Positions 40,376 through 60,700 of a stretch of DNA of 64,000 nt are shown in pieces. This stretch comes from Camelus ferus. Taxonomy: Eukaryota. The position numbers and the translations under genes were made by a program. The notes beneath the pieces were generated by a model. The model was not told the origin of the DNA and did not search any database. It was given only the letters and a program-made list of their open reading frames with translations. The stretch's first letter is position 1, and every line of letters starts with the position of its first letter. The stretch lies in assembly GCF_009834535.1 (NCBI RefSeq), contig NC_045696.1:82462001-82526000 (forward strand), written 5' to 3'.

Positions 40376-40422
<47 letters not shown>
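40376..40422. repeat. (TG)23 perfect microsatellite
   Basis: Seen directly; long and uninterrupted, so likely polymorphic. Confidence 0.97.
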
Positions 40423-40425
<3 letters not shown>

Positions 40426-40615
40426 TCCAGGTACCATTTCCAGGGTTGGTTTGGACACCTGAAGGGTTATGATTTTTAAATGAGGTGAAATTCAGATGTA
40501 GGGAAGTGACTTCTTTATATCAAACCTTATTATAGCAAACCTCTTATTTTTCACAGGAAAAGAAAAGTGGGGTTTTTGGCAATTAATCTGATAATTGAAA
40601 CAGAAAACTTGACTT

Positions 40616-41595
40616 ACTTGGGCAATACTCTTTTTATTTTATTTATGTATTTATGTATTTATTTATTATTTTTTAATAAGAGAATTTAAATTTATTAAGA
40701 AATGTAATGTTGACACTAAGTAAGGAATACAATTTTAAGACATGTGAAAAGCTCATGCTTTTGCCATTACTTTGTCTTCTTATGGAAGCATATATATGTA
40801 AATATGTATATAGAATAAAAAACAAATGAGTCCTTGTTTAGCAGGTGATGAAAGTCATGTTGCCAGGAAGCTCATGGCTAAGTCTTGGAGCTTAATTTAT
40901 AGTAGTTTTTACAAGCTAAGGTTTTCTTTTTTTTTCTTTTCTTTTTTTGTTTTTAGTTTGATATAGATTTATTTTTCTTTTCTTTGTTTTAAAATTTTTT
41001 TACTTGAGTTATGGTAATTTTACAATGTTGTGTCAAATTCCAGTGTAGAGCACAATTTTTCAGTTATACATGAACATACATATATTCATTGTCACATTTT
41101 TTTTTGCTGTGAGCTACCACAAGATCTTATATATATTTCCCTGTGCTATACAGTATAATCTTGTTTATCTGTTCTACACTTTGAAATCCCAGTCTGTCCC
41201 TTCCCACCCCCTGCCCCCTTGGCAACCACAAGTTTGTATTCTATGTCTATGACTCTGTTTCTGTTTTGTATATATGTTCTTTTTTTTTTTAGATTCCACA
41301 TATGAGAGACCTCATATGGTATTTTTCTTTCTCTTTCTGGCTTACTTCACTTAGAATGACATTCTCCAGGAACATCCATGTTGCTGCAAATGGCATTATG
41401 TTGTCGGTTTTTATGGCTGAATTGTATTCCATTGTATAAATATACCACATCTTCTTTATCCGGTCATCTGTTGATGGACATTTAGGCTGTTTCCCATGTT
41501 TTGGCTATTGTAAATAATGCTATGAACATTGGGGTGCAGGTGCCTTTTTGAAGTAGAGTTCCTTCTGGATATATGACTTTGGCAATACTCTTTTT
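40616..41595 (-). mobile_element. 5'-truncated young L1 (camelid-type 3' end) with 3'-transduced flank and target-site duplication
   Basis: L1 3' region ~41002-41575 (ttacaatgttgtgtcaaattccagtgtagagcac...ggcttacttcacttagaatgac...gttgatggacatttaggctgtttc...ctggatatatg). TSD ACTT(G/T)GGCAATACTCTTTTT at 40616-40635 and 41576-41595. T-rich tails at 40631-40674 and 40922-41001. Confidence 0.9.
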
Positions 41596-41732
41596 AATGT
41601 AAATGGCTCTTGCTAAAGTATTTTTTTTGGGCACCTGAATTATTGTTATCTCCATTTGGTTAACCTAAGACCTACTGTGGAAAACTGAATTATGGGATTT
41701 TAAATATATAATAGAGTTTCTCATTTATATAC

Positions 41733-41784
41733 CCTATTTATATGTGAGAAATATATAGCCTATTTATGTGTGAGAAATATATAT
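41733..41784. repeat. 26-bp tandem duplication next to a (TA)n tract
   Basis: cctatttatatgtgagaaatatatag (41733-41758) and cctatttatgtgtgagaaatatatat (41759-41784). Confidence 0.85.
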
Positions 41785-53604: not shown

Positions 53605-53797
53605 TTTTTAAATTGAAGTATAGTTGATTTATAATGTGTTAATTTCTGATATACAGCAAAATGATTCATTTATATATATATTCCTGTTCATATTCTTTCC
53701 CGTTATAGGTCATTACAAAGTATTGAATATAGTTCCCTGTGCTATGCAGTAGGACCTTGTTGTTTATCTATTTTTATATAACGTAGTGTGTGTCTGC
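53605..53797 (-). mobile_element. cetartiodactyl-type L1 extreme 3' end
   Basis: tttttaaattgaagtatagttgatttataatgtg...attgaatatagttccctgtgctatgcagtaggaccttgttgtttatctattttatata. Confidence 0.85.
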
Positions 53798-53804
53798 AAA
53801 TATG

Positions 53805-54395
53805 TTTTTATTGAGATAGAATTGACATGTCATAAAAACTACACCTTTAAAGTGTACAATTCAGGGGTTTTTAGTATATTCACAAGGTTGTATAACCATC
53901 ACCGCTATCTACATTTCATCTCCTAAAAAGAAACCTCATACCTATTAGCAGTCACTTCCTATTCTCCCTCCTTCCAGTTCCTGGCAGCCATTAATTTATG
54001 GATTCTCCCTATTTTGGACATTTCAAATCAATGGAATCATACAGTATGTGGCCTTTTTGGTCTAGCTTCTTTTACTTAACGTAGTGCCTTCAAGGTTCAT
54101 TCATACTGTGGCATGTATCAGAACTTCATTCCATTTTATGGCTGAATAATTTTCCATTGCATGGGTACACCACATTTTGTTTATCCATTCATCAGTTGAT
54201 GGACATTTAGGTTGTTCCCATTTTTTGGCTATTATAAATAATGCCACTATGAGCATTTGTGAATGAGTTTTACATGGGCATCTGGTTTCAATTCTCTTGG
54301 CTATGTACCTAGGAGTGGAATTGTTGGGTCATAGTAACTCAAGGTTTAACTTTTTGAAACACTGCCAAACTCTTTTCAAAGTGGCTGAACCATTC
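53805..54395 (-). mobile_element. L1MB-like 3' region
   Basis: tttattgagatagaattgac...tttaaagtgtacaattcag...aatggaatcatacagtatgtggcc...ccattcatcagttgatggacatttaggttg...cctaggagtggaattgttgggtcatag. Confidence 0.88.
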
Positions 54396-55739
54396 GCAGA
54401 TATTTAAGATACAATACTTGATGATTAATTTGATCTTTTAAAATTGAAAGTGAAAGAGGAATCATTTGAACTCAATATTCATAGTAAAGACTTGCCATTG
54501 TTCACAACCTTTTGAGAGCCTGCGTCTCAGCTACTGTGTTGAAAACTGCATAAACTAAGATAGATGAGATGTAGTTTCTGACTTAAAGGCATTGATAGCA
54601 ATTTGTGGCATTTCACAGATGACCCTTACCCTTTTTAAAAAAAAAGTATAAGTGGTTATTTTTCTTTTCTATTTTTTAATTTTCTTCTTCTTCTCTTTTA
54701 TATTTTTTTCTCATTTGGCCACCACTATTGAGCTTTTAGGGAAGACTCTTGCTGGAGTATTAGATGTGTCAAGACTAGAGGGCAGAAGGGAGCATGATGA
54801 GGTAGATATTGGGTAGGAAGCCAAGATGTACAAGACCAAGAAAATCCTGTCAGGGGATGATTTGAGTGTAACCAATTGTCAACTGTTTCCATGATGGACA
54901 GTGGCCTTCTACCCCATCATGGACATAATTTAAAAAGAAAAAAAAGCTATTTCTCATAGAGACTACATTTGTTTTTCATGTCAAGACTCTGGTGGAAACT
55001 TTCTTTTTCACAGAATTACCCCCTTGTTTTGGTTTGGGGTCTATATAGTCATAAAATTTTGTGAGCTGTGGTGAATTGTATGTATGATTGTATCCACAGA
55101 TCTCTGGCTTAAGAAGCAAGCTTCCAAGGATTTTGTTTGGTTATTGCCTACTGAAATGTATATTTCTTAAGGACAAGCAGATGGTACTTTCCTGGATAGA
55201 ATGCAGAAATTTACCAGGACCTCCTCGAGCTTCTTGTTTTGGGACAGCTTGGTTCTGTTCCTTCCCTAGGAGTTCTAATATTCATACCTTGCCAAGCAAC
55301 TTTCAACCACTGTTTCACTTCACTGAAATGGGTGACAACTACATATTATCTTGAAGCAAAAGTTTATTTACTCTCTATGTAAACAGCTAGGAAAAGTAGG
55401 CAGATGTATTTGTGGAAAGTACAGTGAGCCTTTAATGGTCCTATGTCAGAGATTTTCTTTTCAGGAGCCTCCACCTCAAGGTGGAGGTGAGTTAAGTATG
55501 GGAGATAAACAGGGCATCCTGGCCTGGGAAAGAACCAGGAGCAACAACTCTATGAATTTACTGGTTTTATTTGATATTTCCTTCTTTGCCCAGCACATCA
55601 GCTATACTAATTTTATGCTCTGTCTTCAATAGCAGTTGTCCTCCCTACCCTCCTTCTCTCCCTCCCAAATCACCTTCCTCAGCCTTCAAGGTCCCTCTCA
55701 AGCCAGCCCCTCCTTCCTATTTTCCCCTAGTCTCCTCAG

Positions 55740-59999: not shown

Positions 60000-60700
60000 A
60001 GTTACCCCCACCCCTCCCACTGCCCTGCTGTTTTTGCAACCACCAATCTGTTCTCTGAATCTATGAGCTTGGTTTTTGTTTTGTTTTTGGTTCAGATTCC
60101 ATACACAAGAGAGATTGTACAGTCAGTACTTGTCTTTGAGTTATTTCACTTAGTATAATCCCCTCAGGGTCCATTCATGTTGTTGTAAATGGCAAGATTT
60201 CATTCCCTTTTTATGGCTGAATAATCTTCTATTCTCTATCTGTTTATCTATTTCACACCTTCTTTATCCATTCATCCATTGTTGGACATGTAAGTTGTTT
60301 CCATATCTTGGTTATTGTAAACAATGCTGCAGTGAACATTGAGGTGCATATATCTTTTTGAATTAGTGTTTTCATTTTCTTCTGATAAATACTCAGAAGT
60401 AGAATTGCTGGATCATATGGTATTTCTATTTTTGATTTTTAAAGGAACCGCCATGCTGTTTTCCTTAGTGGCTGAACAAATTTACATTTCCACCAATAGT
60501 ACATGAGAGTTCTTTTTTCTCCATGTCTTTGCCAACACTTGCTATCTTGTCTTTTTGATGATAGCCATTCTAACAGGTGTGAGGTGATATCTCATTGTGG
60601 TTTTGTTTTGCATTTCTCTGATGATTAGTGATATTAAGCTTCTTTTCATGTGCCTATTGGCCATCTGTATGGCTTCTTTGGAAAAATGTCTGTTCAGATT
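60000..60700 (-). mobile_element. L1MA-like fragment (ORF2 C-terminal region plus 3' UTR)
   Basis: caaccaccaatctgttctctg...ttatttcacttagtataatcccctc...gaattgctggatcatatgg...atagccattctaacaggtgtgaggtgatatctcattgtggttttg...ggaaaaatgtctgttcag. Confidence 0.9.

Follow-up and report, generated by a model that had tools for sequence, protein, structure and literature searches.

An L1 insertion with a probable partnered 3' transduction in the Camelus ferus genome, and a second genomic copy of its transduced segment

Background

L1 3' transduction, the copying of DNA from downstream of a donor L1 together with the element, was reportedly first described in the founding papers of Moran (1999), Goodier (2000), Pickeral (2000) and Szak (2003). 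The endonuclease of L1 nicks the strand opposite to the element.

The closest described systems are found in human genomes. In one study, about 25% of human L1 insertions carry a transduction, two tails are typical, and 274 of 349 transduction end points have a polyadenylation signal 10-30 bp before them; the same study describes short transductions, under 60-100 nt, which are ended by a signal just behind the source (PMC13009371). In 1,019 genomes, transductions accompany 497 of 4,429 polymorphic L1 insertions, and 448 of these are 3' transductions (10.1101/2024.04.18.590093). The motif of the L1 endonuclease is given as TT/AAAA in a third study (PMC13174262).

In dogs, 3' transductions of LINE-1_Cf are described, "parentless" ones among them (PMC7980453; PMC13103737). 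The flank has been used as a source tag, with 322 loci and ten of them sharing one tag (PMC13103737). A study of a Great Dane placed 17 of 18 tags at loci without an adjacent L1, the source being dimorphic (PMC7980453). No study of camelid transductions was found in the open literature, and a camelid repeat survey, in its available portion, mentions transduction once and in general terms (PMC8605555).

Here we describe an insertion from Camelus ferus that lies in a window of 64,000 nucleotides (the whole stretch of DNA analyzed); all positions are counted from its first letter. Like the human partnered transductions, it combines a 5'-truncated L1, an old tail, unique flank, a polyadenylation signal, a new tail, one pair of target site duplications (TSDs) and a TT/AAAA target. 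It differs from the human cases, which are polymorphic or somatic, in that the camel-genome copy is old, decayed and apparently fixed in the germline. The structure is also that of the canine LINE-1_Cf transductions, in another non-primate mammal; unlike the Great Dane tags, the second camel copy of the segment may still adjoin an L1, and the element is old.

Results

One direct repeat encloses the whole insertion

The features of the insertion are as follows.

41576..41595, no strand assigned: TSD, copy on the L1 5' side, 19/20 letters alike; next to it stands AATGT, right half of the target TTTTT/AA
41289..41575, minus strand: 5'-truncated L1, last 287 nt of ORF2 with the stop codon (41291-41289), identified by an ORF2p match
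41002..41288, minus strand: L1 3' UTR, 287 nt, identical at 125 of 174 letters to an independent L1 3' end at 53772->53607
40922..41001, minus strand: first A-rich tract, 71% A over 40918-41001
40955..40973, minus strand: AATAAA (40973->40968) and 13 mostly non-A letters, within the first tract
40665..40921, minus strand: probable transduced segment, about 257 nt, 30% GC, with the edge at 40665 deduced from 30-nt contig overlaps
40691..40696, minus strand: AATAAA polyadenylation signal, 16 nt before a tail at 40674 or 26 nt before a tail at 40664
40636..40664, minus strand: second, decayed A-rich tail, 69% A, private to the locus by contig breaks
40616..40635, no strand assigned: TSD, tail-side copy, ending in the T run that would have primed reverse transcription

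The two copies of a 20-nt direct repeat (40616-40635 and 41576-41595) are alike at 19 of 20 letters, the mismatch lying at 40620/41580, and the unit between them is 940 bp long; a repeat of this kind had been claimed in an earlier, sequence-only reading, and it stands. One extra A beyond the repeat also matches (40636/41596), and reading the TSD as 21 nt would move the cut by one. On the minus strand, the order is the end of ORF2, the 3' UTR, an A-rich tail, a single-copy segment (no second copy of 40675-40921 was found within the 64-kb window), AATAAA and a second tail. The two A tails thus enclose non-L1 sequence, all within one TSD pair.

We scanned for direct repeats of complex 20-mers (low-complexity sequence excluded) with at most one mismatch and 100-7000 bp apart. 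The whole window holds three such pairs, namely the TSD pair of the insertion, a pair shared by two older L1 fragments and a pair at 1054/2505, and each of five locally shuffled windows holds none. A private TSD was found neither for the L1 half nor for the segment half, the best candidates being T-rich 8-11-mers, and both halves are enclosed by the one pair.

Removal of the unit and one repeat copy gives an empty site that reads CTCTTTTT/AATGT on the plus strand, i.e., TTTTT/AA, in agreement with the previous proposal of a canonical L1 endonuclease target. The motif TTTTTAA has 71 matches in the window and so is common by itself; what weight it has comes from its position at the insertion. 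Contigs without any differing letter span the junction of flank, TSD, tail and segment in two of the four sequencing runs described below (X5 and X11), and an empty site was seen in none of the four, which had been chosen for holding the filled site.

The L1 part is truncated at its 5' end and intact at its 3' end

Translated, 41504->41292 yields a 71-residue peptide that matches human L1 ORF2p over residues 1208-1274 (E 2.1e-19, PDB search), and 41574->41494 weakly matches the ORF2p residues immediately preceding them (E 0.03-0.08). Pfam returned no L1 family for either of the two ORF2 pieces, its sole hit being unrelated and below threshold. Relative to two older L1 fragments in the window, the ORF2 piece carries a 3-nt deletion and a 1-nt frameshifting insertion in 287 nt, and the deletion is visible against human ORF2p too. 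Only 2 CpG are left in the 574 nt of L1.

Likeness to an older L1 at 60.1-60.7 kb, which is about 300 bp longer upstream, ends at 41578, the edge of the right TSD copy; the L1 5' break adjoins the TSD, and at most 3 letters can be assigned to either. At the other end, the alignment with the independent L1 3' end scores 113, compared with 56 for the best of 200 shuffles, and both L1 3' ends stop at the column of 41002. The description of this part as a 5'-truncated L1 3' region running from 41575 to about 41002 is therefore borne out by the ORF2p match and by the end shared with an independent L1. Neither AATAAA nor ATTAAA was found inside the L1 part. Its end reads AGTAAA (41004->40999), which is a weaker variant of the polyadenylation signal.

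The older L1 material in the window has features of its own. The independent 3' end (53607-53772, minus strand) is short and lies directly downstream of an older ORF2-end fragment (about 53820-54400) with a differing 3' UTR, the two being adjoining old L1 pieces. The fragment at about 60084-60700 (minus strand) is an older 5'-truncated L1 that holds the end of ORF2 and is 72-75% like the L1 of the insertion.

A-rich tracts, polyadenylation signals and the segment between them

The first A-rich tract would be the tail of the donor L1, possibly two tails or a tail together with an A-rich donor target. The AATAAA and 13 letters that split it (40973->40955) may go back to a micro-transduction of earlier date, or they may be part of an A-rich target at the donor site or of a tail that has decayed; because of this split, the copied flank may have its upstream edge anywhere from 40921 to about 40973. 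On the plus strand, the T-rich tract at about 40922-40956 ends in AG and resembles a splice acceptor, as does any decayed tail that is read backwards.

The AATAAA at 40696->40691 probably ended the read-through transcript. Of the arrangement proposed from sequence, in which this signal is followed by 16 nt and a second tail at 40674->40631, the signal is confirmed and the tail is to be shortened, since it probably begins at 40664, in which case the copied block would be 10 nt longer. Positions 40665-40677 are apparently common to the second genomic copy described below, so that the new tail would comprise only 40664->40636, with AATAAA 26 nt before it and the boundary set by contig overlaps. 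With either edge, at 16 or 26 nt, a polyadenylation signal is present 10-30 nt before the second tail.

The sequence that follows the end of the independent older L1 is unrelated to the segment (score 32, compared with 55 for the best shuffle). The placement of the segment outside the common L1 3' UTR is based on this one L1 of an older subfamily in the window and on low copy number. The earlier reading would have been undermined if the segment belonged to the 3' UTR of the L1 itself; we found instead that the independent L1 ends at 41002 and that there are two versions only of the segment among the contigs listed. A coding role was considered and rejected, the longest stop-free frame being 54 codons. 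The window has 0 Rfam matches, and exact-pattern scans gave 0 loci for a segment motif in metagenome contigs and 0 loci for an L1 end motif in metagenome and viral contigs. The segment is non-coding, and nothing points to a function at the insertion site.

A second copy of the segment lies outside the insertion locus

Public sequencing contigs were searched with positions 40430-40921, a query that consists of flank, TSD, second tail and segment and leaves out the L1. Seventeen of the 24 listed runs, under four organism labels, hold 0.96-1.00 of 47 sampled words of this query; two of the 17 may be the source of the window, and the four runs examined are not. These four, taken from a ranking for keeping the letters of the window, are DNA runs X5, X10 and X11 (about 2,000 million letters each) and RNA run X19, whose contigs were matched to the window at 80% likeness. 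Word shares of 0.00 in four listed runs and 0.30 in RNA run X20 are no evidence.

At 80% likeness, 2-6 contigs per run fall on the stretch, and two versions occur among the contigs listed. A version of 40874-40921 with 3 other letters is present in all four runs, and a version identical to the window in two of the four, this one not being among the listed contigs of X11 and X19. The two versions have depths of 9.0 and 9.9 in X10, where the flank has 9.6, and of 14.2 and 19.7 in X5, where the flank has 11.3; with each version near full depth in these runs, neither resembles a half-depth allele.

The breaks between contigs are informative as well. Logan contigs are built from 31-letter words, the word length also of the index, and an exact 30-letter overlap between them marks a branch. 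Exact 30-nt overlaps were observed at 40665-40694, in the runs that list both contigs, and at 40874-40903, and in all three DNA runs the next contig begins 13 letters before 40678, which suggests that another sequence joins at 40665 and that a second branch lies at 40903/40904. The flank (40401-40664) is unbroken in X5 and X11, where one contig reaches 40694. Given the breaks at 40665 and this unbroken flank, the block common to both copies ends within the second tail and does not take in the flank; the contig comparison itself skipped 40629-40677 as repeat, so that the boundary at 40665 comes from contig geometry. In the other direction, the second version continues beyond 40921 for exactly 107 letters before breaking, in each of the three DNA runs, and the version of the window breaks 117 letters past 40921, 37 nt inside the L1 end (X5 record 13). 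The 107-letter run-on fits a slightly shorter tail and an L1 beside the second copy, and any repeat could produce a similar break.

A second copy of the segment therefore exists outside the insertion locus, sharing 40665 to at least 40921 and not the flank. It is most likely the donor; this is the simplest assignment, because any transduced segment must derive from a donor flank and the contigs listed hold two versions only. We infer that an L1 lies beside it. A segmental duplication including the flanks was rejected, the flank contigs being single.

Depth over the segment is about 1.2 times that of the flank (11.8 and 9.6 in X10, 46.4 and 40.2 in X11), whereas identical copies would give 19.0 and 65.4, respectively, and only X5 record 11 reached about twice the single-level depth. 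Differences between the copies that are hidden by merging would explain the low values. Contig depth is not copy number, and contigs may drop out unnoticed, so that a third copy could be missed; likewise, the gaps in contig coverage at or close to the second tail in X10 and X19 prove nothing. In RNA run X19, the flank, the segment and the other version all have depths of 2.0-2.3, which gives no hint of an abundant transcript; low, flat depth in one library cannot show transcription.

Two details of X5 concern its assembly paths. Records 14 and 15, which share a 30-letter overlap, belong to a single path. The second version of 40874-40921 is broken again at 40879, with depths of 7 and 19.7, and this break may reflect two alleles or a further copy in that organism.

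Discussion

Partnered 3' transduction and its alternatives

We consider it highly probable that the insertion arose by partnered L1 3' transduction. Transcription of a donor L1 at another place in the genome would have run past the weak end of that element, through its A tail and into about 260 nt of downstream DNA. If AGTAAA was already present in the donor, as we infer together with the order of these events and the place of the second copy as a donor with an L1 beside it, the read-through would be explained. Polyadenylation would have taken place 16-26 nt behind the first strong AATAAA of that DNA, and the RNA, should 40665-40677 belong to the donor, would have ended within or just past a short run of A. 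The L1 ORF2p would then have nicked the plus strand at TTTTT/AA, primed on the new tail and reverse-transcribed the flank, then the old tail and finally 574 nt of L1 before stopping, with repair leaving the 20-nt TSD and the insertion decaying neutrally afterwards. This explanation is supported by the paired tails and by the signal placed 10-30 nt ahead of the end, both of which the human study gives as hallmarks of partnered transductions (PMC13009371).

The central proposal of the sequence-only reading, one L1 insertion with a transduced downstream flank, is thus upheld by the single TSD pair, the lack of private TSDs for its halves in our searches and the second copy outside the locus. Its description of the segment as the tag of an active element was overstated. 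The copy has decayed, as seen in the deletion and insertion in ORF2, the mismatch in the TSD and the difference from the second copy, and it tags an element that was active long ago. Because differences inside merged contigs are hidden, the 3 differences in 257 nt between the copies are only a floor.

The same single TSD pair, AATAAA and tail, and second genomic copy would be equally expected from a template switch, in which reverse transcription started on the poly(A) of some cellular transcript, with the segment as the 3' end of that transcript, and then moved over to the tail of an L1 RNA. On this view, the second copy would be the gene of the cellular RNA and would have no L1 next to it. 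Chimeras of L1 with other RNAs, formed by template switching or RNA ligation, are documented and, like the present insertion, place two sequences of different origin within one TSD pair, as far as the accessible text of that study describes them (PMC13174262). There, however, the non-L1 RNA lies at the L1 5' end, which is the reverse order: here the foreign part is on the 3' side of a complete L1 end and tail, and the L1 5' break adjoins the TSD. Moreover, the second copy keeps its likeness as far as the edge of the first tail at 40921, its break 107 letters further on resembles that of the copy in the window, and the low depths in X19 (weakly, from one library) give no sign of an abundant transcript. 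We regard a template switch as very unlikely. Two separate events deserve slightly less credence still. In that scenario the segment, as a retrocopy or local DNA, was present first and the L1 inserted beside it, the direct repeat coming from one of the events or from chance; A-rich tracts do attract L1 insertions, the TTTTTAA motif is common, and the window has another 19/20 repeat at 1054/2505. Against this scenario, no TSD was found for the L1 or the segment taken singly, the repeat copies coincide exactly with the L1 5' break and with the far end of the second tail, and the second copy lacks the flank of the insertion locus.

The segment could also belong to the 3' UTR that members of an L1 subfamily regularly carry: the second copy too seems to adjoin a repeat upstream, and small lineages can arise from a transduction that has become fixed. 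Many contigs would be expected of a subfamily, whereas 2-6 per run and two versions were obtained at 80% likeness, and the independent L1 (though of an older subfamily) ends at the 41002 column and shares nothing downstream. We hold this explanation to be barely plausible, and we give just as little credit to the possibility that the second version is allelic or was created in assembly, in which case the insertion would still be one unit, with a donor flank lost or too diverged and an origin that is untraceable. The segment depth, well under twice that of the flank in two of the three DNA runs, would suit an allele or artefact, but three DNA runs with three different organism labels all show the same 3-letter version, break points and 107-letter run-on, and each version is near full depth where both are listed.

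Meaning of the insertion

With partnered transduction as the preferred reading, the insertion is a clean, ordinary example of a well-known process. Its biological weight is small: going by the studies cited above, about one in four to nine human L1 insertions is tagged in this way, and dogs have hundreds of such loci (PMC13009371; 10.1101/2024.04.18.590093; PMC13103737). Its use is that of a marker. The tag can link the insertion to a donor locus, the two copies together can serve to time the event, and whether other camelids carry the insertion would be a nearly homoplasy-free character.

The AATAAA and 13 letters between A tracts (40973->40955) have the form of the short human transductions. 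They differ from the known ones in that they would be nested upstream of a second, longer transduction, and a decayed tail or an A-rich target is equally possible. On a tentative two-step pedigree, which we think rather doubtful, a grandparent L1 with the AGTAAA end would have been read to the AATAAA about 30 nt on, leaving a 13-nt micro-transduction, and its daughter at the donor locus would have been read through both signals, carrying a further 257 nt to the present site. If true, three generations of a camelid L1 lineage could be traced, as the genome apparently still contains the donor. A literature search for serial transductions brought up nothing relevant.

Other repeats in the window

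The second 19/20 direct repeat (1054-1073 and 2505-2524) has its copies 1451 bp apart, and inspection by eye revealed edges without L1 or A tail. A tandem duplication of 38 nt is located at 2740-2816 (97% matches). Finally, 130 bp to the right of the insertion, positions 41726-41783 contain a 26-nt tandem repeat in 2.2 copies, followed by an AT-rich palindrome.
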